A stretch of 64,000 bases of DNA from NCBI GenBank assembly GCA_031285625.1, contig JAITVV010000092.1, positions 157,679 to 221,678 on the forward strand. The letters are read 5' to 3'. A program made the translations under genes and the position numbers. The stretch is from Prevotella sp. GTDB lineage: Bacteria; Bacteroidota; Bacteroidia; Bacteroidales; Dysgonomonadaceae. Positions 721-43,862 of the stretch are shown here, one piece after another; the stretch's first letter is position 1, and each line of letters starts with the position of its first letter. Below the pieces are notes generated by a model that worked only from the letters and a program-made list of their open reading frames with translations, did no database searches and had not been told where the DNA came from.

Positions 721-1473
721 ATGAGAGAAAAGAGGGATTTAAATCTGGCAGTACTGATTGATGCAGATAATGTACCGTATTCTAATATAAAAGGTATGCT
801 GGATGAAATAGCCAAAATAGGTGTACCAACAATAAAACGTATTTATGGAGATTGGACAAAGCCAACAGTTTCGGGATGGAAGCAGCCGTTACTGGAGCAT
901 GCAATCACTCCGATACAACAATATAGCTACACTACGGGAAAAAATGCGACCGATTCTGCAATGATTATTGATGCCATGGATATTCTGCATAGTGACAAAG
1001 TAGATGGATTCTGTCTGGTTTCCAGTGATAGTGACTTTACCCGACTGGCAGTAAGACTCAGGGAATCTGGTATGCAGGTGATCGGTATAGGAGAGAAAAA
1101 GACGCCGAATCCATTCATTGTAGCCTGTGATAAGTTCATCTATATTGAAATTATCGGTGATTCTGAGGATCAGCAGGATACAACAACTTCTGCAACAAAG
1201 AAAGATAAAGAAAAGAATATAGAGCCTGTAAATAAAAAACTTATCAATCTGTTAAAGAGCACAGTGCGTGATCTTGCCGACGATGACGGCTGGGCCTATC
1301 TGGGAGATATAGGTAATCTCATTATTAAAAAGCGCCCCGATTTTGATTCCCGTAACTATGGTTTCTCCAAGCTTGCAGCTTTAGTAAAGGCGCAAAAGAA
1401 GGTATTTGAGATAGATGAACGAAAGACTGAAAAAGGACACTCGCAATTGGTATATGTGAAAATTAAGGAGTAG
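721..1473 (+). CDS. NYN-domain (PIN-like) predicted RNase with C-terminal OST-HTH/LOTUS RNA-binding domain
   Basis: LIDADN, GKNATD, VSSDSDF, LRESG motifs; C-terminal DDDGWAYLGDIG...PDFDSRNYGFSKL is typical of OST-HTH. Confidence 0.88.
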   Translation: MREKRDLNLAVLIDADNVPYSNIKGMLDEIAKIGVPTIKRIYGDWTKPTVSGWKQPLLEHAITPIQQYSYTTGKNATDSAMIIDAMDILHSDKVDGFCLVSSDSDFTRLAVRLRESGMQVIGIGEKKTPNPFIVACDKFIYIEIIGDSEDQQDTTTSATKKDKEKNIEPVNKKLINLLKSTVRDLADDDGWAYLGDIGNLIIKKRPDFDSRNYGFSKLAALVKAQKKVFEIDERKTEKGHSQLVYVKIKE

Positions 1474-1474
1474 C

Positions 1475-2170
1475 TCAACCTGCTCCATTTATACAATAAA
1501 GCAGGATTTTTCCCTCTTTATTCTTTCGTATATAATATATTTCAGAAAATTCGGTGATACTTTCTTTTGGGTCTCCACTGTTATAGCTCAAATGATAATT
1601 TGAAATATACTCTCCTTGGTATTCCTCTCCGGTAAAGAGATGGATAGAGTGTATATAGCCATCGGATGTTTTTAGGGTCGGATTATATGCCTTGTCTTTT
1701 ATTGCTTTATCAAAATCATATTTAACTAATAATTGTATAAACTCCTTATCAAAGATTTTACTTGCATTCTCAATAAAGTCCTCTCTATAGAATTTACCAT
1801 CTTTGCTATTAGCTAGTGCCACCTGTTCATCAGTATAATCCGGCGCATAAACTTTAAATCGAAAAACATCCCCAAATAAGGGATATTGTACCATGTCGGC
1901 CAGTTTATGATAATCTTTTTTTAAGAGGTTCTTTTTGAACTCTTTCCAAAAACTGATTTGTTCTTCAGCACTCATTATTTCTGTGGAAGTCATCTCCTTA
2001 TAAGGATCGTCCTGAATATCTTTCCGTATAGTAGTTTCGGATATTATAGAATCAGTCAATGATACCACTGAGTCAATTTTTTCAACGGGAGCTGCTTTAC
2101 TTGTATTGCTCGTACATGAAAAACAAATCGCTGAAAATAGTATGAAAGAGAAATAAATCAGTTTGTTCAT
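1475..2170 (-). CDS. hypothetical lipoprotein
   Basis: 231-aa ORF, signal peptide with lipobox-like FSC. Confidence 0.65.
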   Translation of the reverse strand: MNKLIYFSFILFSAICFSCTSNTSKAAPVEKIDSVVSLTDSIISETTIRKDIQDDPYKEMTSTEIMSAEEQISFWKEFKKNLLKKDYHKLADMVQYPLFGDVFRFKVYAPDYTDEQVALANSKDGKFYREDFIENASKIFDKEFIQLLVKYDFDKAIKDKAYNPTLKTSDGYIHSIHLFTGEEYQGEYISNYHLSYNSGDPKESITEFSEIYYIRKNKEGKILLYCINGAG

Positions 2171-2205
2171 ATGTTTGTAAAGTATGTCTGTATAAAGATA
2201 GATAA

Positions 2206-2240
2206 AATCAGAGCTGAAATATTACATTTCAACTCTGATT
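2206..2240 (-). terminator. intrinsic terminator after Ro60 and its cognate Y-like RNA
   Basis: AATCAGAGCTGAAAT-attac-ATTTCAACTCTGATT inverted repeat with short U tail on minus. Confidence 0.6.
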
Positions 2241-2247
2241 ATTAAAA

Positions 2248-2329
2248 AAATCTTGTGAAGTAACTATCACAAAGAGGCTAGCAAATTTTAAGTCCGAAGG
2301 AACTCTATGCTACGACACTCACAAGATTT
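2248..2329 (-). ncRNA. minimal Y-RNA-like cassette (frame only, about 18-nt insert)
   Basis: Starts 5 nt after the TROVE stop; terminal stem AAAUCUUGUGA/UCACAAGAUUU; carries the GUGUCGUAG-CAU-AGAGUUCCUUCG...CUCUUU...GUUAC frame of the other six units. Confidence 0.75.
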
Positions 2330-2334
2330 CTCAT

Positions 2335-3849
2335 TTATAGTTCTATTTTTCTTACTTCGTCCAAAGCGTTCCCACCATTATCTATAGCCGATATGATGTC
2401 AAATATTTTATCGGACCAACCAGCTATCAAATACACATCGTTCTGAGTGATATCCAATGGAGTGTTTCCATAACCGGACAAGTCGAACAGATATAGCTTA
2501 CTGCTTGGTGATATCTTTTTATATTCATTCCATAGATCAGCTATTTTCTTGTCATTTTTGTTGTTCCACAATTGCAAATCAGTAAACATCATGACTTTAT
2601 CCATCTGTTGTTTTCTCTTTATCAGGTCTTCTATTACCAGATAACCGTTGGTTGCATAGCCTACTTCTCCTTCGCGGCGATAGAAAGCATCCACATTAGA
2701 CAATATACCTTGTGTAGGTACATTTATCACCTTCCACTTATCACCGAACATCCCGGTTATGGCATTTTCGCAGCGTGACTTCAATAGCATAGCCAGCATC
2801 AAACCTATATCATAACACAGTATTTTACTTTTAGCAGATACCGGACGTTGCATAGAGCCTGATACGTCACATGCTATCAGTACACTGGTGTCAGCATCAA
2901 AACCTTTTATATTTTCAGCAGATACAGCTACGGCTTTTTCCAATGCATCCAGTACACGGCTTGCATATGCAGACTTCACTTTAGATATTTCACGATACGC
3001 AGCCAGAAAACGGAATGGCAATTGTTTTGAACGACGTACAGCTTCCGGTGAAGCCAACGCACTGCATACTTTTATGATATGCTCTTTCGAAACATTCGAT
3101 TCCAGTATATTACGCAAGTTACGCATCAATGCCATATAGCCTATTTTACCACTATCTATCAGTTCTTCCCATTTGATGCGGAATGCAGTTCCCTTTTCAG
3201 CTTCGGAATCAAATTTTATTTGACCCAATGCAGAAAGTTCTGTTTCCCAAGTATATGGTGTTTCCAATGTATCATTTACTATCTTGTTGAACAAAGCCTG
3301 TTGGTCTTCATCCTTTGCCTTAGGGTGTACAAGAAATAGTGCATCACGAAGTTTTATTTCCGCATCACGATTATATTTTGCAAACTGATATTCATCAAAC
3401 CGGTTGAATGCATTCTGCAATCCGGCTTGTAGCTGTTTCGACAGACGATTTAGTTTCTTTGTGTCTTGTCTTTCATTAGCAAGCTGGTAGTAGGCCAACA
3501 GTTCTGTTATCTCATCTGCACGCTGCACCACTTGCAATACCATTTTGCTTACAGTAGAGTCTCCTCTGTGTATTTTAGCCAACTCTACAGCCAATACCAA
3601 TGGAATTGAACGCAGATTCATCTTCTGGCGTGTATATACAGCCAGCTGTGCTACAAATATCGGGTCACATCGTTTTATCAAACCACGCATTGTTTCAACT
3701 CGGGCTTGCGCGCTTTCGTAAAACTTGTCACTCAATGCAGAGGTAACGGCAGCAGTATACAATTGCCACTCTGGTGATAGACGGTATGCTTGTGCTCCTT
3801 CATAATTTACCACCTTGTTTTTTCCTTTGTTTCTGAAATTGAATTTCAT
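2335..3849 (-). CDS. rsr: Ro60/Rsr orthologue (TROVE + vWA domains)
   Basis: N-terminal NYEGAQAY, TPYTWETELS, GYMALMRNLRN, SKQLPFRFLAAY; vWA MIDAS DVSGSM and MFTD motifs. Confidence 0.92.
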   Translation of the reverse strand: MKFNFRNKGKNKVVNYEGAQAYRLSPEWQLYTAAVTSALSDKFYESAQARVETMRGLIKRCDPIFVAQLAVYTRQKMNLRSIPLVLAVELAKIHRGDSTVSKMVLQVVQRADEITELLAYYQLANERQDTKKLNRLSKQLQAGLQNAFNRFDEYQFAKYNRDAEIKLRDALFLVHPKAKDEDQQALFNKIVNDTLETPYTWETELSALGQIKFDSEAEKGTAFRIKWEELIDSGKIGYMALMRNLRNILESNVSKEHIIKVCSALASPEAVRRSKQLPFRFLAAYREISKVKSAYASRVLDALEKAVAVSAENIKGFDADTSVLIACDVSGSMQRPVSAKSKILCYDIGLMLAMLLKSRCENAITGMFGDKWKVINVPTQGILSNVDAFYRREGEVGYATNGYLVIEDLIKRKQQMDKVMMFTDLQLWNNKNDKKIADLWNEYKKISPSSKLYLFDLSGYGNTPLDITQNDVYLIAGWSDKIFDIISAIDNGGNALDEVRKIEL

Positions 3850-3903
3850 CTCTTTTAATTTTTAATGTTAAGGTCTTAACGACACTCTAATTGTTTGACA
3901 TTA

Positions 3904-3940
3904 CAAAGATTCAAAAACAAGTACGCAGCTTTTTTGCGTA
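3904..3940 (-). promoter_or_regulatory. Ro60 promoter (-7-like AATCTTTG) with palindromic operator TACGCA-N7-TGCGTA (3922-3940)
   Basis: Perfect 6-bp palindrome; recurs at 7402-7420 and 28990-29008 at the same spacing. Confidence 0.7.
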
Positions 3941-4064
3941 ACAAAAACTTTCTTTTAAAACTTCTCATTTTTAACAATTATCATAAAAAAGTAACAAGTT
4001 ACATCGATCTCCAATATTCAATTAATTATTTGATTATTAAATATATGATTCTAACATCAAGCAT

Positions 4065-4112
4065 AAAAAGTGACAAAAGTAACAGGTTTTGCCCATTTTT
4101 TATTGTAACCTT
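4065..4112. repeat. dispersed intergenic element AAAAGTGACAAAAGTRACA-N19-21-TGTWACYTT, copy 1
   Basis: Near-identical copies at 8730, 28487 and 31997. Confidence 0.7.
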
Positions 4113-4226
4113 ATTCTTTTATCGATATGCTGACCTAATAAGATAAAGTTTTTAAACAATCTCAAATCTGGTAATTTCATACTGATTATAAAAATAATAA
4201 GTGTATTTTTGGCTAAAATTTAACAA

Positions 4227-5138
4227 ATGTTTGAAAAGAAAATCAGTACGGCAATAGGCCGGTATTTCCCATTATTTATAGGATGGAGCCGATATATATT
4301 ATATAAACATCCCGACTGGCTGCTTCGAAAGGATATTCTTAAATATTATGATTCCGTATCTCCATCAGAAATAAATGAAGAACAAGCGGAAGCAGTTTCT
4401 TACATTCGTAAAAAAGGGGCGCATTATTTTCCCTATTCGTTTATTGAAAAGTATAATCCGGAAAAAATAAAAGTATATACAAATGAAAAATGTGGATTAA
4501 AGTATGTATTACATAATGAGAAACGGCTCTATTTTGCAAGAGAAACATCAGCTTTTAATATTCAGAGGATATATACCAACCTTTTGTACGAGCAGGATCG
4601 TAAATCTGCACATTGCTACCAGACTGAGACTTTTAGGATAGAAGAAGGAGACATCCTGTTTGATGTAGGTGCTGCAGAAGGTATATTTTCGTTAACAGTG
4701 ATTGAGAAGGTAAAGAAAGTCTATCTCTTCGAAGTAGAGGAGCGCTGGCTGGAAGCATTACGCGAAACTTTCAAGCCATGGCAGGATAAAGTGGAGATTA
4801 TCTGCAAATATGTATCTGATACGGATAGTGAGCAAACTGCCAAACTGGATACTGTTATAAAAAAGCTTAGTAATGAATCTTTATTTCTTAAACTGGATGT
4901 GGAAGGAGCCGAAAAATTAGTTATCAAAGGAGCAAACGAGATATTAACTTCAGGAAATAATAAAATTAAAGCTGCCGTATGTACCTACCACAATCAAGAT
5001 GATCATGAAGAACTATCGGCTATCATGAAGGATTTAGGATATAGGGTAAGTACATCTCCCGGCTACATGCTTTTTAAGCAACAAAATCTGGCTCCGCCTT
5101 ATCTGAGAAGGGGTTTAATTTATTGTAGTAAAGAATAA
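4227..5138 (+). CDS. FkbM-family SAM-dependent methyltransferase
   Basis: FDVGAAEG (motif I), LFEVE, LKLDVEGAE, CTYH. Confidence 0.85.
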   Translation: MFEKKISTAIGRYFPLFIGWSRYILYKHPDWLLRKDILKYYDSVSPSEINEEQAEAVSYIRKKGAHYFPYSFIEKYNPEKIKVYTNEKCGLKYVLHNEKRLYFARETSAFNIQRIYTNLLYEQDRKSAHCYQTETFRIEEGDILFDVGAAEGIFSLTVIEKVKKVYLFEVEERWLEALRETFKPWQDKVEIICKYVSDTDSEQTAKLDTVIKKLSNESLFLKLDVEGAEKLVIKGANEILTSGNNKIKAAVCTYHNQDDHEELSAIMKDLGYRVSTSPGYMLFKQQNLAPPYLRRGLIYCSKE

Positions 5139-5167
5139 TCTTTACATTATCAGAGAAATAATAGAAG

Positions 5168-6226
5168 ATGACAATACAAGAAATAAAGGACAAAGGGCTA
5201 TTACTATTTGAATGCATAAGTGGCAGTAAGGCATATGGTCTGGATACACCAACTTCTGATACAGACCTGAAAGGAGTATTTTATCTACCGAAAGACCAAT
5301 TCTTCGGACTGGACTATATTACTCAGATAAATAATGAGACCAACGATGAAGTATATTATGAGTTGGGGCGGTTTGTAGAATTGCTTTGTAAAAACAATCC
5401 TAACATACTCGAAATACTAGCTTCCCCTGAAGACCGTATATTATACAAGCATCCTATTATGGATAGCTTAAATATCGAACTGTTCTTATCCAAACTCTGT
5501 AAGGAAACTTTTGCGGGTTATGCTCATTCACAAATCAAAAAGGCCAGAGGCTACAAAAAGAAGATCGTAAACCCGATGGAAAAAGAGCGGAAGGATGTGC
5601 CCGACTTCTGTTATATTCTCGAAGGATATTCTTCTGTTCCGGTAAAAGAGTGGCTACAGGCGAAAGATTACCTTCAGGAAAGATGCGGACTGAGTTCTAT
5701 ACCTCATACTAAAGGAATGTACGCCTTGTTTTATGACGAAGATGATAAATTCAGATATAAAGGAATAGTACATAATCCCGACGCCAATGAAGTTGCTTTA
5801 TCTTCTATACAAAAAGGAGAGAAAGAAGTCGCCTATCTGTATTTTAATGTTGAAGCTTATTCTTTGTATTGTAAAGAGTACAAAGAATACTGGGATTGGG
5901 TTGCCAATCGCAATGAAATACGCTATCAGGGTAATCAGCAACATGGAAAAAATTATGATGCAAAGAACATCATGCACACTATCCGGCTGTTGCAGGTTGC
6001 CGAAGAAATATTGCGTGATGGGAAGCTAAATGTAAAGAGGCCTAATCGAGAACAATTGCTGAATATAAAAGCTGGAATGATGGAATATGATGAACTCTTG
6101 GTAATGGCGGACGACCTGATGCACAGGATAGAGCAATATGTCGGTAAAAGCCACCTGCAAGATATTCCTGATAAGAATAAAATAGAGGAAATATTGATCG
6201 GGATGAGAGTGAAATTATATAAATAG
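5168..6226 (+). CDS. RlaP/YcgL-like DNA polymerase-beta superfamily nucleotidyltransferase
   Basis: SGSKAYGLDTPTSDTDLKGVF (GS...DxD), YELGRF...NNPNILE, YDAKNIMHTIRLL. Confidence 0.85.
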   Translation: MTIQEIKDKGLLLFECISGSKAYGLDTPTSDTDLKGVFYLPKDQFFGLDYITQINNETNDEVYYELGRFVELLCKNNPNILEILASPEDRILYKHPIMDSLNIELFLSKLCKETFAGYAHSQIKKARGYKKKIVNPMEKERKDVPDFCYILEGYSSVPVKEWLQAKDYLQERCGLSSIPHTKGMYALFYDEDDKFRYKGIVHNPDANEVALSSIQKGEKEVAYLYFNVEAYSLYCKEYKEYWDWVANRNEIRYQGNQQHGKNYDAKNIMHTIRLLQVAEEILRDGKLNVKRPNREQLLNIKAGMMEYDELLVMADDLMHRIEQYVGKSHLQDIPDKNKIEEILIGMRVKLYK

Positions 6227-6228
6227 CT

Positions 6229-6657
6229 ATAGATCAGAATAATATATCAGAATTCCTATCTAAAGTTGAAAATATTATTAAGTCTCTTGATGAACTTTCA
6301 GGTTTATCAGACAATTGCATTAAAGAATTCGACGGTACTGAATTTGATGGACAAAGCCAGTTAGCTGGTAAGTTGGATGACCTGTTCCTTATAGCTAGCC
6401 ACGAAATGGCAACACAACTTGCTTTCGTAAAAGAAGATATTCTTATCCTTATAAAGTTCATAAAATTCAGAAAAGGATATCCCCAACTATCGGAAACAGA
6501 GCTCGAACAAATATTAGACACTGAGAATCTGGAACTTAAATTTAAAATGGAGATAAAACCTAAATTGAGAGACCATAGTATTCTTGAAATAAAGGAATTA
6601 TGGAACAATACATTCAACAATAAATCATTCAAGAAGATAATAAACCGGTTCAAATAA
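6229..6657 (+). pseudogene. hypothetical ORF, possibly 5'-truncated
   Basis: Frame is open from about 6223 to the stop at 6657 but has no ATG near its 5' end (track uses TTG 6373); no recognisable motif. Confidence 0.3.
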
Positions 6658-6661
6658 AAAA

Positions 6662-6785
6662 TCAGGGTAATAAGGCGAAAAGGCTGATATAAACCGGCGC
6701 TTTACTTTAAGCTACGAAATCGATAGGTCTTGCACCTATATAATCCGGATCCCAAATCGAAGAAATCCTCTTCTACGACACCTGA
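6662..6785 (-). ncRNA. Y-RNA-like cassette, array unit 5 (3'-most), permuted tRNA-like module
   Basis: Ends UCAGG/CCUGA; module CCGG-AUUAU-[AUAGG UGCAAGA CCUAU]-CGAUUUCG-UA-[GCUU AAAGUA AAGC]-G-CCGG. Confidence 0.78.
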
Positions 6786-6795
6786 AATTATAAAA

Positions 6796-6933
6796 AACAG
6801 AAGTAACAAGCGAAAAGAGCGAGCGGGGCATGGCTTGCCGGAGTCGAACCGGATAGTCTCGCCGGATTTACGACCTCACTATTCCTCCCCTAAAATTGGT
6901 AGCCGAAGTATCTCTCTTCTACGACATTCTGTT
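6796..6933 (-). ncRNA. Y-RNA-like cassette, array unit 4, with T-arm
   Basis: Ends AACAGAA/UUCUGUU; conserved frame; CCGG-UUCGACU-CCGG T-arm and an AUAGU/ACUAU stem. Confidence 0.75.
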
Positions 6934-6943
6934 ATATTTAATC

Positions 6944-7067
6944 AACAAGGCAACAAACGAACAGAGACTATAATAGCTTGCTCTACCCACTGAGCTACAC
7001 CCGAAGATGACAGGAATCGAACCCGTGACCCAGTTAACCGAAGTAACTCTATTCTACGGCACTTGTT
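6944..7067 (-). ncRNA. YrlA-like cassette, array unit 3, permuted tRNA module
   Basis: Ends AACAAG/CUUGUU; GGUC-[ACGGG UUCGAUU CCUGU]-[CAUC UUCG GGUG]-UA-[GCUC AGUGGGUA GAGC]-A. Confidence 0.85.
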
Positions 7068-7085
7068 TGTACTAATTCACAAATA

Positions 7086-7202
7086 AACAAGGTAACAAGC
7101 ATAAAGAGCAAACTTTGTCCAACCTCGGACGTTGCGGGAGTCGAACCCTTTTCATTAATTGGCGTTTAGCAAACGAAGTAACTCTTTACTACGACACTTG
7201 TT
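7086..7202 (-). ncRNA. Y-RNA-like cassette, array unit 2, with T-loop
   Basis: Ends AACAAG/CUUGUU; GGG-UUCGACU-CCC plus a GUCC..GGAC hairpin. Confidence 0.75.
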
Positions 7203-7210
7203 ATATTATT

Positions 7211-7352
7211 TAAACAAGGCAACAAACGAGAAAAGCCTTTTTGATCTGGTGTCCTATTTTACTAGACGACTACAACTTACATTGCTGGCTGTTTTTTCAA
7301 CAGCGTTTCCAGAGTGGATTACGAAGTATCTCTTCCCTACGGCACTTGTTTA
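7211..7352 (-). ncRNA. Y-RNA-like cassette, array unit 1 (promoter-proximal), degenerate permuted cloverleaf
   Basis: Ends UAAACAAG/CUUGUUUA; UCUGG-AAAC-[GCUGU UGAAAAA ACAGC]-acceptor-like hairpin-UC-[GUCU..GGAC]-A-CCAGA. Confidence 0.75.
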
Positions 7353-7384
7353 TTTATTTCAATGATCTTTTCTTATTTATACTG

Positions 7385-7420
7385 CAAAGTAATAACCTTG
7401 ATGTGCAATCTTTTTGCGCA
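7385..7420 (-). promoter_or_regulatory. array promoter (-7-like TTACTTTG) with operator TGTGCA-N7-TGCGCA (7402-7420)
   Basis: Same architecture as the sites upstream of Ro60 and of the 28.9-kb RNA locus. Confidence 0.7.
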
Positions 7421-7482
7421 ATGAAATATTTCTTGAAAAAAAGCTATTCTAACATATTGAAGATACTTACATCAAAACATTA

Positions 7483-8625
7483 TTATTTCCTATTGGGGTC
7501 ATATACAGCAACAGCCACACGTGAATCAGCACAGCCATAATACAGATACCATTTTTCATTATGTAATACCAGACCTTCAATGAACACTGTTCCTGCAGGA
7601 TATTGTCCACTCTTCTCAAAATCAGCTTCCGGAATATAGAAAGGCTTATCAAGCTGCCCGATCACTTTTGTCGGATCTTGCAGGTCGAACAATACCTGTC
7701 CTGCACAATAGGAGTTCGCAGTATATGCAGTATCACCTTCTGCTCCATCTGCATTTTTGCCATTATAAAGCAAAAGGATACCCTTGTCTGTCATTACAGC
7801 AGGTGGGCCACACTCTGTAAGAGAGCTATCAAACTTGCCCGGACGAGGCACTATCACTTTAAGGAAATCTCCGCTTTCTGTCAGTATTGGAGTCCAGTTG
7901 ATCAAATCATCGGAAGTTGCAACATTCACGAATTTTTCACCCCAATACATCCAGTATTTTCCATCAATTTTAGCAATTACCTGTTTTCCATCTACAATTT
8001 TAGTTATAATCGATGCCGACTTCGAAAAATCATCTTTAAAACGTCCGTCATAAGCTTTTGCAAATGCAGGCCCATGTTTTTCCCACTTTTGCAAGTCACG
8101 GGTAGTTGCTACAGCCAGGCGTGCCTGCTTTCTGTTCCATTGTGTATACAGCATCACATACATACCATCTTCAGTCATTGTAAGACGGGGATCTTCACAA
8201 CCTCCCGGCCATTCCAGCTCTTTCTGACTATCATTGTCAGGATAAAATGCCGGAGTAGATTTTCGTTGAAAATGCAACCCATCTTCCGACCATGCATATC
8301 CAAGGCGGGAAGTACGGCCACCTATACCCTCTCCCGATTTATCCTCTGCACGATAAAGAACTACTACCTTTCCATCATAAATAGTTGCTGCAGGATTGAA
8401 GGTATCATTCGATTCCCAGTCGACAGAATCTTTTCTCAACGGACAATAGAAACGGGTGGTAGCATCCGGTGAAATAATTGGATTTATCCCTTCCGGACGT
8501 TGAAAATCAGCCCATGCCCAATCCGGAAATTCCGAACCTTTTTCAGTTGGTTTCTTTTCATTACAAGAAACGAGCATAGCAGCTGTTGCTAAAAACAAGC
8601 TTACTTTAAAAATACTTTTTTTCAT
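7483..8625 (-). CDS. GH130-family mannoside-active glycosidase/phosphorylase, lipoprotein
   Basis: TFNPAA, LYRAED, GGCEDPR, ECGPP, YYGCADS; lipobox VSC. Confidence 0.88.
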   Translation of the reverse strand: MKKSIFKVSLFLATAAMLVSCNEKKPTEKGSEFPDWAWADFQRPEGINPIISPDATTRFYCPLRKDSVDWESNDTFNPAATIYDGKVVVLYRAEDKSGEGIGGRTSRLGYAWSEDGLHFQRKSTPAFYPDNDSQKELEWPGGCEDPRLTMTEDGMYVMLYTQWNRKQARLAVATTRDLQKWEKHGPAFAKAYDGRFKDDFSKSASIITKIVDGKQVIAKIDGKYWMYWGEKFVNVATSDDLINWTPILTESGDFLKVIVPRPGKFDSSLTECGPPAVMTDKGILLLYNGKNADGAEGDTAYTANSYCAGQVLFDLQDPTKVIGQLDKPFYIPEADFEKSGQYPAGTVFIEGLVLHNEKWYLYYGCADSRVAVAVYDPNRK

Positions 8626-8729
8626 TGGTTATATATTAATTATTTATTTGCAATGTATTTTACTTGTCTATCAAAAAGTAACATTAACACAAAACATCTA
8701 CTCATCTAATAATCAGGCAATATACTATT

Positions 8730-8778
8730 AAAAGTGACAAAAGTAACACTTTTTTGTATGTTTTTATATTGTTACTTT
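8730..8778. repeat. dispersed intergenic element, copy 2
   Basis: AAAAGTGACAAAAGTAACA-N21-TGTTACTTT. Confidence 0.7.
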
Positions 8779-8893
8779 ATTGCTAGATAACACGCTTGTT
8801 ATCTGTATTATATAGACAATATTGAAAATATAAAGTAACAGCTTTATTGGTAAAGAGATCCTTCGTTCCTCTGGATGACAAAATCTTCATTAC

Positions 8894-11044
8894 TTATGGA
8901 AATGAAGGCGGATCTACCTTAGTGCCCCATTGTAAATCAGGCTTGGAGGAAGTATTATATTCCAGTGTTGCTCCATTTGAGATATCCTTCCAGTCTATCC
9001 ATGTACTATCATATGGTTTGCCATCTATCTTTAAAGACCGTATATAAATATCTTTTTCCGACCCCCCTTTTATTACCAGGTCGCCATTCTTAAGCCGCAT
9101 CTTTATAGAAGGGAAGATGGGAGTGTTTATTGAGAAGCCTCCAACACCCGGAATCTCCGGATATAGACCCACACATGCAAAAACATACCATGCACCCATT
9201 GTTCCCAGGTCATCATTTCCAGGAAGCCCATCAATCTTATTAAAGTACTGCTCATTCAGCACACGATTTATTATTTTCTGTGTTTTATCCGGACGTCCTA
9301 CCCAGTTATATATCCATGGAATATGAAAACTAGGCTCATTTCCCGAAGCATACCAATCATCGTTATAACTTGCATCTAACCGTCTGAACAGATCATCAAG
9401 CCGCGCTTCCGCCTTGGCTTTACCACCTACGATATCTATCAGTCCGCCTATATCATAAGGAACCATCCAGAAATAATTTTTGTATGTGGATTCACGGAAA
9501 TCATCGCTTAATGGCTTCCATGAGCCATCCGCATTCCGGGATTGTAACCATCCTGTTTCAGGATTATACAGATTTTTCCACGATCGTGCAAAGTGAGTGT
9601 AGCGCCAGGTTGTAAATTCGTCACCACAGGCATATAATGAAAATCTGGCAATAGCAAAATCGGCAGAGGTATATTCCAGTTGTTCAGATGCATTGTAATA
9701 GCCTTTTTCCAGATATTGTTTCAATCCCGGACGCACTTCTATTTTTTGTGACATTGAACCGGGAATTTCGGCTCCATGTTGCATTATCTTGAGGATAGGC
9801 TTAGGATTATAATTTCTGGCACCAAATGCCCATGCATTTGAAATAAGTATCGGAGTAGGATCTCCCTGCATAATTCCGGTCTCTATATTTGCCATCGCCC
9901 AACGTGGAAATCCCTGTCCACCCGTTTCCTCTGCAAACAACTGATGAGAAATCACTATATCGGAAGCAATATCAGGATCGAGCATAGAAAGAAGCTGTAT
10001 CTGTGTGTGATAGGTATCCCAGTTACTGAAAGAAGTATAATGTTTAGATTTAGTTTTATGGATCTTAAAATCCGCGCCCATATATTCCCCATTCACATCA
10101 CTACAAACATTCGGATGAATAAGTACTCGATAAAGATGTGTATAAAACTGGATAGTGCGGTCAGGATTGGTTCCTTCCACTTCTATTCTGCCTAAATATT
10201 CATTCCATTTAGCTTCAGCCTGACTTTTCGTAATATTAAAATTCCATCCTGTATTCTCAGCTCTCAGATTTTCTCTGGCATTTTCAATAGATACATACGA
10301 AACCCCTACTTTATATTGTACTACTTTATTACTACTAACATCGAAAGTAAAATATACACCGGAGTTACTCCCTTCGGCAAAGGTTGATTTTTCTCTTATC
10401 TTATCGTCTTTCCATGTTCCTGTATCAACAGCTTTAGTATCAAATTCGGCAACAAAATATACCTTATACGGTGTAGGAGTTCCACAAAAATTACCTCCTT
10501 CGGCATACCCCTCACAAGTATTTGGACTTGTAATAATTACCGTGGCATTTTCTGTATGCGTTGCAGCTACACCTGCCCCGATTATAACAGTGCCTAAATT
10601 CTCACCCTGAGGATATTCATAGCGGGCCATACCTGTTCTTTCCGTAACAGTAAGTTCAGCTTTGATATCTTCCTGCACCATCGTTTCATAATAGCCGGCA
10701 TGTCCTTTTTCTTCAGATAAATTTATGCGATAGCTGATAATATCATCAGGGGACATTTGCAACCTTCCCTTTACCGGAAAAGTAGGAAAATTCCCCATAT
10801 GCTCGCAGCCTCCACCGCTTAACTGATTGATAACAAAACCCGACTGTTTGGAAAAATAAGACGGTGTAAACTGCACCATCCCGAAAGGATAAGTAGCTCC
10901 GGGATATACATATCCGGATGCCCAGCCTACCCCTTTATTACCGATGAGCGTATTTACCTTACTTGCATAGTCTGATAGTGCCGTTTGCGCATTCATTACT
11001 AAAAAAGGAATGATAAAAAGTAGACATATCAATCTGATTTTCAT
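8894..11044 (-). CDS. GH92 alpha-mannosidase
   Basis: PGATYPFGMVQ, SNWDTY, LEYTSAD, GNEPSFH, PGNDDLGTMGAWY. Confidence 0.92.
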   Translation of the reverse strand: MKIRLICLLFIIPFLVMNAQTALSDYASKVNTLIGNKGVGWASGYVYPGATYPFGMVQFTPSYFSKQSGFVINQLSGGGCEHMGNFPTFPVKGRLQMSPDDIISYRINLSEEKGHAGYYETMVQEDIKAELTVTERTGMARYEYPQGENLGTVIIGAGVAATHTENATVIITSPNTCEGYAEGGNFCGTPTPYKVYFVAEFDTKAVDTGTWKDDKIREKSTFAEGSNSGVYFTFDVSSNKVVQYKVGVSYVSIENARENLRAENTGWNFNITKSQAEAKWNEYLGRIEVEGTNPDRTIQFYTHLYRVLIHPNVCSDVNGEYMGADFKIHKTKSKHYTSFSNWDTYHTQIQLLSMLDPDIASDIVISHQLFAEETGGQGFPRWAMANIETGIMQGDPTPILISNAWAFGARNYNPKPILKIMQHGAEIPGSMSQKIEVRPGLKQYLEKGYYNASEQLEYTSADFAIARFSLYACGDEFTTWRYTHFARSWKNLYNPETGWLQSRNADGSWKPLSDDFRESTYKNYFWMVPYDIGGLIDIVGGKAKAEARLDDLFRRLDASYNDDWYASGNEPSFHIPWIYNWVGRPDKTQKIINRVLNEQYFNKIDGLPGNDDLGTMGAWYVFACVGLYPEIPGVGGFSINTPIFPSIKMRLKNGDLVIKGGSEKDIYIRSLKIDGKPYDSTWIDWKDISNGATLEYNTSSKPDLQWGTKVDPPSFP

Positions 11045-28534: not shown

Positions 28535-28581
28535 TTCTTTCTGTCCCATTTATATTAGACAATCTTAATTATATATTCTTG

Positions 28582-28777
28582 TACTCCTAATGAGATTCGA
28601 ACTCATATTCCCTTTCGGGCAGTACGGCTCTAAATACGCTTCCCTACTTTTCAGTTAAGAATTTCGGTGCATCTGTAAAATCTACCCATAACAACGCGCA
28701 GCTATTACGGGGCTATCCATACACTCTATGGTAAGTCTAAATTTTGCCACAGGCTTTTCCTTTTAAGCTATAGGAGC
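28582..28777 (-). ncRNA. tRNA-like RNA (Leu-type body) with a 119-nt structured segment in place of the anticodon loop
   Basis: Acceptor GCUCCUA/UAGGAGU + A73; D arm GCUU/AAGC; anticodon stem UGUGG/CCGUA; variable arm CCC-GAAA-GGG; T arm AUGAG-UUCGAAU-CUCAU. Confidence 0.75.
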
Positions 28778-28784
28778 AAATTAT

Positions 28785-28935
28785 AAACGAGGTAACAGGC
28801 GAAAAGAGACTGTTTATCCTGCTCTACCACTGAGCTACACTCCCGTTAATTTGTATTACTGAGAGAGTGAGGGGACTCGAACCCCCGACCCGGGCATTAA
28901 AAGTGCGAAGTAACTCTAATCTACGACACTCGTTT
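28785..28935 (-). ncRNA. YrlA-like Y RNA with a complete circularly permuted tRNA module
   Basis: Ends AAACGAG/CUCGUUU; frame; GGGUC-[GGGGG UUCGAGU CCCCU]-[CACUCUC..18 nt..GGGAGUG]-UA-[GCUC AGUGGUA GAGC]-A. Confidence 0.87.
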
Positions 28936-28972: not shown

Positions 28973-29008
28973 CAAAGTAAAAGCACCGGAGCGCAGTGTT
29001 TTTGCGTA
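28973..29008 (-). promoter_or_regulatory. promoter (-7-like TTACTTTG) with operator AGCGCA-N7-TGCGTA (28990-29008)
   Basis: Third copy of the Ro60/Y-RNA operator at the same spacing. Confidence 0.7.
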
Positions 29009-42926: not shown

Positions 42927-43862
42927 TTATGTTTTTATACTATGCACCAGATTTTTCACTATATTTTTAAACTCCAACGGCTCTATAACCGTAGCCTGGT
43001 CTGCAAAGGATAGATACCATCGGGCAAGCCCTTCCAGTGAATGAGTTACATAATGCTGAATTACATAGTCATCAAAGTCTTCTTCATTCACCAATCCGAA
43101 TATATATTTTGTCATTCCCATAAAACGTAGTGCCGGTTTTTCCACCCTTACTTTTACATTATATACGATATCACTAGCATATATTTTATCAAGAAGAGCT
43201 TTCAATGTTGGATGCTTATTTTCAAAACCATTTTCTAGAGAAATCAGGTTCTGAATACGGCTCAGGTTAAAAGTCCGATAATCTTTTCTCAGTTTACACC
43301 AGGCCATTACATACCAGTTGTTCACCATGAAATAAAATCCGAGTGGTTCGATATCGCGAGTGGTTATTTCCCTGTTGTAGTTTGCATTATAATCTATCCG
43401 GGCTACTTTTTTATCTATAATACAATGTAAAAGCGGCTGAAAAACATTTACAGGCTCGCTTAATGGCAGGGTATGGTTCTCTAAGGCTTGTATATGACTA
43501 TCAAAATCTTCAAGAATATTTTTCTCAGCACTTCGTAACACTGCCCTTATCTTACCCATCCCGCTACGGTAAAACTTATAAGTATCCTTTTCGGTCTGAC
43601 GGCTTATCAGTTTTTCGGCCATAAGGAACGCAATAGCCTCTTCCGTGGAAAACATGAGTGGAGGCAATTTATATCCGTCTACCAGAGAATACCCCAATCC
43701 GGCCTCTCCCGTGATGGGAATACCCGATTCTTCCAAAACACGTATATCCCGATAAACAGTACGCAAACTAACACCAAATTCATCCGCAATCTGACGGGCT
43801 GTAACCACAGAACGTGATTGCAGCCTGACAAGTATTGCTGATATTCGATCGAGTTTATTCAA
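42927..43862 (-). CDS. YafY-family wHTH-WYL transcriptional regulator
   Basis: VSLRTVYRDI, GEAGLGYSL, LPPLMFS.EEA, RDIEPLG, WYVMAWCKLRKDYRTFNLSRI. Confidence 0.92.
   Translation of the reverse strand: MNKLDRISAILVRLQSRSVVTARQIADEFGVSLRTVYRDIRVLEESGIPITGEAGLGYSLVDGYKLPPLMFSTEEAIAFLMAEKLISRQTEKDTYKFYRSGMGKIRAVLRSAEKNILEDFDSHIQALENHTLPLSEPVNVFQPLLHCIIDKKVARIDYNANYNREITTRDIEPLGFYFMVNNWYVMAWCKLRKDYRTFNLSRIQNLISLENGFENKHPTLKALLDKIYASDIVYNVKVRVEKPALRFMGMTKYIFGLVNEEDFDDYVIQHYVTHSLEGLARWYLSFADQATVIEPLEFKNIVKNLVHSIKT

Follow-up and report, generated by a model that had tools for sequence, protein, structure and literature searches.

Among the described bacterial systems closest to the locus discussed here is the rsr-yrlBA-rtcBA operon of Salmonella enterica, governed by RtcR and sigma-54 (Chen et al. 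2013/2014; Hughes et al. 2020, PMC7790460). The locus, with rsr (the gene of the Ro60 protein Rsr) and an array of Y-like RNAs, occupies positions 721 to 7420 of a stretch of 64,000 nucleotides, termed the window in its whole length, on contig C37 of a gut Dysgonomonas genome (G000; 4.8 Mb). Both loci combine Ro60 with adjoining Y RNAs, one class of which is a permuted tRNA mimic, and both are tied to enzymes of RNA repair and look like stress regulons. Unlike the Salmonella operon, however, the Dysgonomonas genome, which is 94% complete, gives no match to RtcR (PF06956) or RtcA (PF01137), and its rtcB is situated on another contig without the operator found at rsr. This operator is palindromic, stands at an ordinary promoter and is predicted to bind a candidate WYL-domain regulator. 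The genome further carries between six and eight Y RNAs, which fall into several module classes, as against two in Salmonella, and a split Hen1/Pnkp set belongs to the regulon. We consider it likely that this is a Ro60/multi-Y-RNA locus within an RNA-damage regulon that is defined by the operator, operates without RtcR and is probably controlled by a WYL protein.

Other systems offer further points of comparison. In Chen et al. 2014 (PMC4201824), GNCGAAN0-1G is proposed as the Rsr contact, and precursors in Mycobacterium smegmatis and Deinococcus are reported to be processed to single Y RNAs. For Bacteroides, Chryseobacterium and Pedobacter, the supplementary table of the same paper lists one to three YrlA candidates next to rsr; Y RNAs are therefore not new in the phylum, while the size and diversity of the arrays exceed what that table contains. 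All units described below read G-Y-C-G-U-A-G at the 5' end, one base off the YrlA motif as given in that paper. The WYL regulators covered by Makarova et al. 2014 (PMC4012209) share with the present candidate the WYL and WCX domains, a palindrome beside the regulator's own gene in many loci, and a stress or damage regulon, but the candidate targets here are RNA-repair genes and non-coding Y RNAs. The bacterial Pnkp/Hen1 repair system has the same Hen1 N-terminal domain and methyltransferase, Pnkp-type ligase, and kinase with HAD phosphatase. In contrast to that system, Pnkp of the Dysgonomonas genome is split over two genes (ligase; kinase-phosphatase), and the operon stands under the rsr operator.

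The shared operator, its targets and a candidate regulator

The genes and sites that carry the argument are as follows, in window coordinates unless a contig is named.

2335..3849, minus strand: rsr, Ro60/TROVE protein of 504 amino acids, by Pfam TROVE and a solved-structure match
3917..3946, minus strand: operator 1, with the TTACGCAAAAAAGCTGCGTA core at 3922-3941, then a TCTTTG box; upstream of rsr; 38.0 bits
7405..7418, minus strand: operator 2 core, then a TACTTTG box; heads the five-unit Y array; 27.1 bits
28993..29006, minus strand: operator 3 core, then a TACTTTG box; heads Y7; 24.3 bits
C37:150102-153698 (L005:9103-12699), plus strand: split Pnkp/Hen1 operon with operator site C37:150031, 4-8 kb left of the window
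C91:50597-53217 (L007:6598-9218): operator-headed 443-amino-acid protein with a DUF2262 protein downstream; fourth-best site
C37:141073-142083, 18 kb to the left: HTH-WYL-WCX regulator; WYL 44.9 bits, WCX 47.3 bits

rsr is the sole TROVE gene in the whole genome. Its product matches Pfam TROVE PF05731 with 108.4 bits (cut-off 23, E 6.5e-31), and residues 15-494 match the solved TROVE proteins 9l5y/9kop in a search of PDB sequences (E 3e-23). The score against vWA_Ro60 PF25045 lies just below the cut-off (27.4 against 27.7 bits), and that against the NCBIfam Rsr equivalog NF041674 is 48.2 bits where the cut-off is 900. Judged by the latter score, Rsr here is a divergent Bacteroidota branch outside the curated equivalog. 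We also note that AGAGTGTCGT in the rsr leader (window 3878-3890, minus strand) is similar to the 5' motif of the Y RNAs. TGYCGT occurs within 60 nt of the rsr start at 11 of 80 Bacteroidota loci against about 2.8 expected, a weak excess as all 11 are close kin; Rsr might bind its own mRNA.

The Bacteroidetes -7 promoter consensus is TAnnTTTG. In the window, CGCAAAAANNNTGC occurs three times without mismatch (3925-3938, 7405-7418 and 28993-29006), in all cases on the minus strand, and forms the core of a 19-bp palindrome (YRCGCA-N7-TGCGYR; TACGCA-N7-TGCGTA type) with a TTTG promoter box 10-14 nt on. A position weight matrix (PWM) was trained on 42 distinct sites upstream of rsr, all from other genomes. 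Across the whole Dysgonomonas genome its top sites are those at rsr (38.0 bits), C37:150031 (30.8), the Y array (27.1), C91:50597 (24.9) and Y7 (24.3), the next site scoring 19.1 bits. The second of these precedes an operon of three genes, with Pfam matches to Hen1_N (3.6e-61), PNKP_ligase (9.8e-25) and kinase plus HAD_PNKP (8.6e-52), and since this operon stands under the rsr operator, the locus belongs to an RNA-repair regulon. The 443-amino-acid protein on C91, which has no match in Pfam, PADLOC or NCBIfam and no homologue at the 80 loci, is by virtue of its site a candidate member. A preliminary description of the locus, drawn from the letters and open reading frames, had tied its genes together by proximity and a shared operator. 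The operator is indeed shared by rsr and the Y array, and also by Y7 and the Hen1 operon, but not by the NYN-LOTUS, FkbM/RlaP and helicase genes that are treated below, before which the genome scan gives no site above 16 bits.

The position of the operator is conserved in two samples: 80 Bacteroidota rsr loci, each with 10-kb flanks, the neighbour genes of which were scored against a chosen query set and not every Pfam family, and 24 genomes of the same genus, of which six are rsr-positive and 18 rsr-negative. The operator is found before rsr in all six rsr-positive relatives and precedes the arrays of G022, G007 and G012 too. Among the 80 loci, the relaxed form RCGCA-N7-YGCGYA is present 40-140 nt before rsr at 67 (chance 0.0086 per 100 nt). 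The gene right after operator and promoter box is Rsr 69 times, WYL 16 times (on the other strand of the palindrome), a Y RNA 12 times and RtcB ten times. The layout wyl <-> operator-rsr-Y array-(rtcB) is kept across Bacteroidota, with RtcB near rsr at 46 of the 80 loci. In G022, G007 and G012, a single strand carries the operator, four to five Y RNAs, RtcB, a second RtcB, PrfH, a 196-amino-acid protein, KptA, RNA ligase and the HD-kinase. In the Dysgonomonas genome, the region left of the window also contains genes for an RNA ligase, an HD plus P-loop kinase protein, a radical-SAM protein and KptA.

WYL-domain transcription regulators include the PafBC, BrxR, CapW and DriD types. The layout of the operator and the genes situated 3' of it point to a WYL-type protein that regulates its own gene along with rsr, the Y arrays and the genes of the repair enzymes, with co-location as the ground for this assignment. 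The WYL protein of C37 is 79.5% identical to the product of the gene divergent from rsr in G022, G007 and G012, and a WYL homologue is encoded within 10 kb of rsr at 56 of the 80 loci, 53 of which have the operator. Matches of the C37 protein to solved WYL proteins are weak (E 0.0016-0.007), and a literature search brought up no publication that connects WYL regulators with rsr or with Y RNA. The operator overlaps what we take to be the position of the -33 promoter element, and this placement fits a repressor at most slightly better than an activator. A second HTH-WYL-WCX regulator is encoded in the window at 42927-43862 (minus strand) beside AraC/GyrI-like, hydrolase and UvrA-like genes, an unrelated context; it is a candidate for an alternative operator binder.

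Y RNAs and the comparative evidence for their structure

The Y-like RNAs and an accompanying structured RNA are listed in the order of the array, all on the minus strand.

2247..2328: Y0, short Y-like RNA of class F; motif without mismatch, directly 3' of the rsr stop codon, T run at the end
7212..7351: Y1, Y-like RNA with a module lacking T and D arms; motif match, and a minimum free energy (MFE) terminal stem with bulge architecture
7082..7204: Y2, Y-like RNA with only a T-arm-like hairpin, GGGTTCGACTCCC; motif match and fold
6943..7069: Y3, YrlA type (T arm, acceptor-like hairpin, D arm); Rfam YrlA 35.2 bits, E 8.3e-05
6796..6933: Y4, class C, with the invariant GGGGAGGAATA, a T arm and no D arm; 37-sequence alignment A1
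6662..6785: Y5, class E, final unit of the array; motif match with two mismatches, and fold
28785..28935: Y7, class A Y RNA of YrlA type; motif match, Rfam YrlA 34.3 bits, E 2.6e-05
C37:154755-154975 (L005:13756-13976): eighth Y-like RNA, class G, 220 nt, 2.7 kb left of the window
28580..28778: structured RNA of about 200 nt with tRNA-like ends, 3' of Y7 in the same operator-headed unit

A 32-nt repeat family has six copies, between 6660 and 7352 and just 3' of the rsr stop codon, and motif matches bear out the six Y-like RNAs that had been reported for positions 721 to 7420, one 3' of rsr and five in tandem. The 16-nt 5' motif GTGYCGTAGNANAGAG, allowing two mismatches, is matched seven times in the 64-kb window and always on the minus strand, where 0.30 matches are expected and seven were reached in none of 100 shuffles. 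Six matches are located at 2303, 6766, 6912, 7047, 7182 and 7330, and the seventh, at 28914, lies beyond 7420. In the whole genome there are 142 loose motif matches, eight of which have a subsequent TTACTTCG-type arm; all eight are on the minus strand of C37, in the rsr island. Y7 is 21 kb from the main group, forms row one of alignment A2, and has orthologues that head the arrays of G022, G007 and G012. Orthologues of Y5 in the same three genomes end a few bases 5' of the RtcB start codon, and those of Y0 are found 3' of rsr in G004, G024 and G012. The long terminal stem of Y0 is present in both the MFE and the centroid fold.

Near rsr at the 80 loci, the Y motif has 318 same-strand matches and 19 opposite-strand matches in 1.5 Mb. 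As the loose-motif background in the Dysgonomonas genome is about 0.014 per kb (142 matches in 9.7 Mb), false matches add little to this count. At least two Y units are present at 78 of the loci; the commonest number is 3-4 and the highest 10. The units share a closing stem, in which the 5' arm GUGYCGUAG...AGAG UUACUUCG pairs with the 3' arm CUCU..CG..UGUURCC, and differ in their inner modules. Defined by a lower helix of 7 bp and 4 bp of the upper one, the closing stem is found in 194 of 349 motif matches (164 distinct 7-mers), as compared with 36.4 +/- 3.7 after swapping of the 7-mers (maximum 43 in 20 permutations). The Y of GUGYCGUAG covaries with the R of UGUURCC, the pair being UA in 26 and CG in 11 sequences of class C, and CG in 20, UA in 15 and UG in six of the YrlA class.

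Only units whose lower stem was paired entered the alignments; no such selection was applied to the inner helices. In the class C alignment A1, which has 37 sequences and includes Y4, compensatory changes occur at 21 of 34 pairs; 98.4% of cells are paired, against 89.8% after shuffling (none of 500 shuffles was equal) and 42-54% with slid partners. The YrlA-type alignment of 41 sequences, including Y3 and Y7, has compensatory changes at 24 of 32 pairs. Its consensus order is closing stem, T arm, acceptor-like hairpin and D arm, the last three being the order of YrlA RF02553, and among the units of the window only Y3 and Y7 follow it; Y0, Y1, Y2, Y4 and Y5 have no full tRNA-like module. Classification of 195 units with a strict closing stem gives 68 that are YrlA-like (T arm before D arm), 38 of class C, 27 with a T arm only, 52 with neither arm and seven of class G. 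The same classes recur in genera from Dysgonomonas to Flavobacterium, Chryseobacterium and Pedobacter, in every case next to rsr.

Class G, to which the eighth RNA belongs, is known from nine distinct loci, six of which, in other genera, carry a perfect or near-perfect match of 19-27 nt to a universally conserved segment of 23S rRNA. The reference was the 23S of a congener, since the Dysgonomonas assembly gave no 23S match to the class G pattern. At two loci, 27 of 27 nt are identical (E 4e-11 against the 3-kb rRNA locus). In 180 trials with shuffled queries there were eight matches at E <= 0.05, a control that leaves match lengths unexamined. The three Dysgonomonas copies of class G retain only 11 nt of the segment. 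The segment is presumably that of the loop and 3' strand of helix 69 and the start of helix 70. The eighth RNA has no match in Rfam, and a literature search found no paper on an rRNA-like Y RNA.

The RNA of about 200 nt at 28580-28778 combines a 7-bp acceptor-like stem, a D-like region GTAGCTTAAAAGG and a T arm with a central domain that spans about 130 nt. Twelve distinct copies are found at rsr or RlaP/RtcB loci from Bacteroidales to Flavobacterium, with compensatory changes at 26 of 40 predicted pairs, including all seven acceptor pairs, and no Rfam match at E <= 1. A repeated motif, AAAAAGTGACAAAAGTAACA, is present in intergenic positions 4063-4103, 8727-8767 and about 28500, and many unrelated metagenome contigs match a piece of about 35 nt of it alone; it is probably a common promoter-type element outside the Y RNA/rsr system.

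The sequencing data inspected comprise two RNA-library runs, one run guessed to be RNA and one DNA run (20 were listed), all as contigs. In two of the runs, contigs of a relative 95-99% identical break at window positions 7081 and 7202, both ends of Y2, and continue into a class A unit. These breaks suggest that the order of array units differs between close strains.

Weight of the evidence and the neighbouring genes

Several observations weigh against the operator-defined regulon and its Y RNAs as proposed. At least three operator copies with at most one mismatch arise in nine of 100 shuffles, which makes the count alone weak, and the argument therefore rests on position and conservation. Rfam at its gathering threshold finds no Y RNA in the window; a permissive search recovers YrlA in Y3 and Y7 alone, at 35.2 and 34.3 bits, half of the gathering score (69). 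When the units are folded singly, their energies do not surpass those of shuffled sequences (z -1.8 to +0.9). It is hence covariation between related sequences that supports structured RNAs, and in it the pairing of helix 1 is inflated by the pre-selection of units with a paired lower stem. Related loci are kin, and hence the 80-locus and genus counts overstate independence. Contigs of the RNA libraries, from the relative 95-99% identical, cover positions 795-9000 evenly over genes of both strands and are therefore uninformative about transcription. The link to RNA repair made in the preliminary description stands through the Hen1/Pnkp operon and fails for rtcB, which was located with PrfH in a long operon on contig C29, separate from rsr and the Y units, and has no operator by the PWM scan.

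The remaining adverse points concern the regulator, and they are also what favours a reading that we regard as rather unlikely, namely that the palindrome is bound by a non-WYL regulator or is part of a special promoter class, WYL being a frequent neighbour. Of the 24 loci without WYL within 10 kb, 14 keep the operator. In the Dysgonomonas genome the WYL orthologue lies 18 kb off, separated by three unrelated genes, and two further WYL proteins make three paralogues. The overlap of the site with the presumed -33 element would likewise suit a promoter class. Against a WYL protein as mere neighbour speak the operator in 53 of the 56 WYL-positive loci, the placement of the palindrome between divergent wyl and rsr, and the 16 cases in which wyl is downstream of the palindrome; in addition, no other regulator gene recurs among the query-set neighbours, although an unbiased neighbour survey was not made.

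The genes around rsr raise a different alternative. They are given below.

Window left edge, minus strand: ResIII/DEAD/Helicase_C (SF2) protein of 918 amino acids, first 100 codons inside the window
721-1473, plus strand: NYN + OST-HTH/LOTUS protein; NYN E 7.4e-39, OST-HTH/LOTUS E 4.3e-20
1475-2170, minus strand: lipoprotein-like open reading frame (ORF) of 231 amino acids with a lipoprotein-type signal peptide
4227-5138, plus strand: FkbM-type methyltransferase
5168..6226, plus strand: RlaP-family nucleotidyltransferase; PF10127 92.2 bits (cut-off 23), SGSKAYG...SDTDLK
6223-6657, plus strand: small stop-to-stop frame of 144 codons, protein-like, beginning at the RlaP stop codon
7483 onward: glycoside hydrolases

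The preliminary description read the NYN-LOTUS nuclease, Ro60, RlaP, the helicase and the Y RNAs as one co-regulated surveillance/repair machine. Its gene assignments are sound: NYN + OST-HTH, Ro60/TROVE and the nucleotidyltransferase are all matched by Pfam, the pol-beta GS..DTD motif of RlaP is intact, and the SF2 helicase at the window edge is the 918-amino-acid protein, whose identity becomes visible only on extension to the left of the window. All five components lie within 7.5 kb, and genes of RNA repair abound in the surrounding 45 kb, but the genes are on mixed strands with separate promoters, and the operator is absent at the NYN, FkbM/RlaP and helicase promoters. NYN-LOTUS adjoins rsr in G004 and G024 as it does here, and is on a separate contig in G022; its orthologues (at least 70% identity) are present in 12 of the 24 genus genomes, that is in three of the six rsr-positive and nine of the 18 rsr-negative ones, and it is near rsr at one of the 80 wider loci. 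The helicase is near rsr at none of the 80 loci, and the same is true of FkbM. A single machine of this kind is thus quite improbable, and the place in the module that had been assigned to NYN-LOTUS and the helicase is not supported.

RlaP, a genuine member of an RNA-repair family, is the exception among these neighbours. It lies within 10 kb of rsr at 12 of the 80 loci, mostly between the Y array and rtcB, which is far above chance for a single-copy gene. Within the genus, however, it follows rtcB rather than rsr: orthologues occur in four of the 24 genomes, one of which is rsr-positive with RlaP on a different contig, and rtcB adjoins RlaP in two rsr-negative genomes, G014 and G015. The RlaP of the Pseudomonas RtcB operon (bioRxiv 10.64898/2025.12.29.696909) has the same PF10127 domain, GS..DxD motif and RNA-repair neighbourhood. 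In contrast to that case, the rlaP gene here comes after that of an FkbM-type methyltransferase and points towards the end of the Y array, and no ligase gene adjoins it within 721..7420. RlaP has a published link to RNA ligases, which its recurrence near rsr fits. A search of PDB sequences with RlaP returned spurious matches only and no solved relative. The earlier view of RlaP as a repair partner survives in part: with no operator and no linkage to rsr in the genus, it is plausible as an accessory. For lack of the operator and of co-occurrence with rsr, NYN-LOTUS, the helicase and FkbM were dropped and RlaP was kept in this accessory role. Together with the lipoprotein ORF, the three genes dropped are probably bystanders.

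None of ATG, GTG and TTG occurs in the frame at 6223-6657 ahead of position 6373, and the sequence sets examined contain no homologue of it; the opposite ORF139 (6234-6653, minus strand), of low complexity, was treated as non-coding. NCBIfam gave nothing decisive on the proteins of the locus. A known defence system was considered and dropped: PADLOC gave weak matches for the helicase (PbeA-like, E 1.5e-11) and the methyltransferase, and none for NYN, Rsr or RlaP.

Finally, it is very improbable that the repeats represent tRNA genes in decay or a family of mobile repeats instead of functional Y RNAs, for although their tRNA-like T-arm and D-arm sequences (23-29 bits with a tRNA model), the sub-threshold YrlA scores and the unremarkable folding energies are what such a family might display, ARAGORN calls none of the Y units in the window as a tRNA, the closing stem and inner helices have compensatory changes, all eight copies of the genome lie on one strand of the rsr island, and the classes are kept beside rsr from Dysgonomonas to Flavobacterium, Chryseobacterium and Pedobacter.

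Proposed action of the regulon and its meaning

In the operator-defined regulon as we envisage it, the HTH-WYL-WCX protein of C37 probably binds the palindrome and would release or activate promoters as damaged RNA builds up, so that five promoters open on an RNA-damage signal. Transcription of the arrays probably yields precursors, from which the individual Y RNAs are released by cleavage. Each of these probably docks on the Rsr ring by the common stem, and its module would direct Rsr to a given partner or substrate class. Hen1/Pnkp, RtcB and RlaP would mend RNA ends, with RlaP probably trimming or extending the 3' ends of repaired RNAs; in the Dysgonomonas genome itself, RlaP is probably a leftover of an rlaP-rtcB linkage outside the regulon.

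A further step is possible but clearly tentative. The Y arrays may be mimics of different translation-machinery RNAs on one Ro60-binding stem, switched on by a WYL sensor of RNA damage. The mimic classes would be a permuted tRNA (A, B), a D-armless tRNA-like fold (C, Y4) and class G with its 23S segment. Each mimic could lead Rsr and the repair enzymes to a particular class of damaged RNA, or else serve as a decoy or sensor for ribotoxins that cut that RNA. The suggestion of the preliminary description that different tRNA mimics may recruit or decoy different enzymes agrees with the conserved module classes.

To our knowledge, bacterial Ro60/Y RNA biology is founded on three species with two Y RNAs each and RtcR as the switch. 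In the 80 Bacteroidota loci, multi-unit Y arrays are the norm, a palindromic operator is conserved, and a WYL-type candidate stands in the place of RtcR. The NYN-LOTUS and helicase genes gave the locus the appearance of a larger machine; it is a variation on the rsr-Y-rtc theme, widespread among the Bacteroidota loci examined. What is gained is a list of conserved module types of Y RNA, one of them with rRNA sequence, and, in a single 19-bp site and a single candidate regulator, a testable handle on the RNA-repair signal in bacteria without RtcR.

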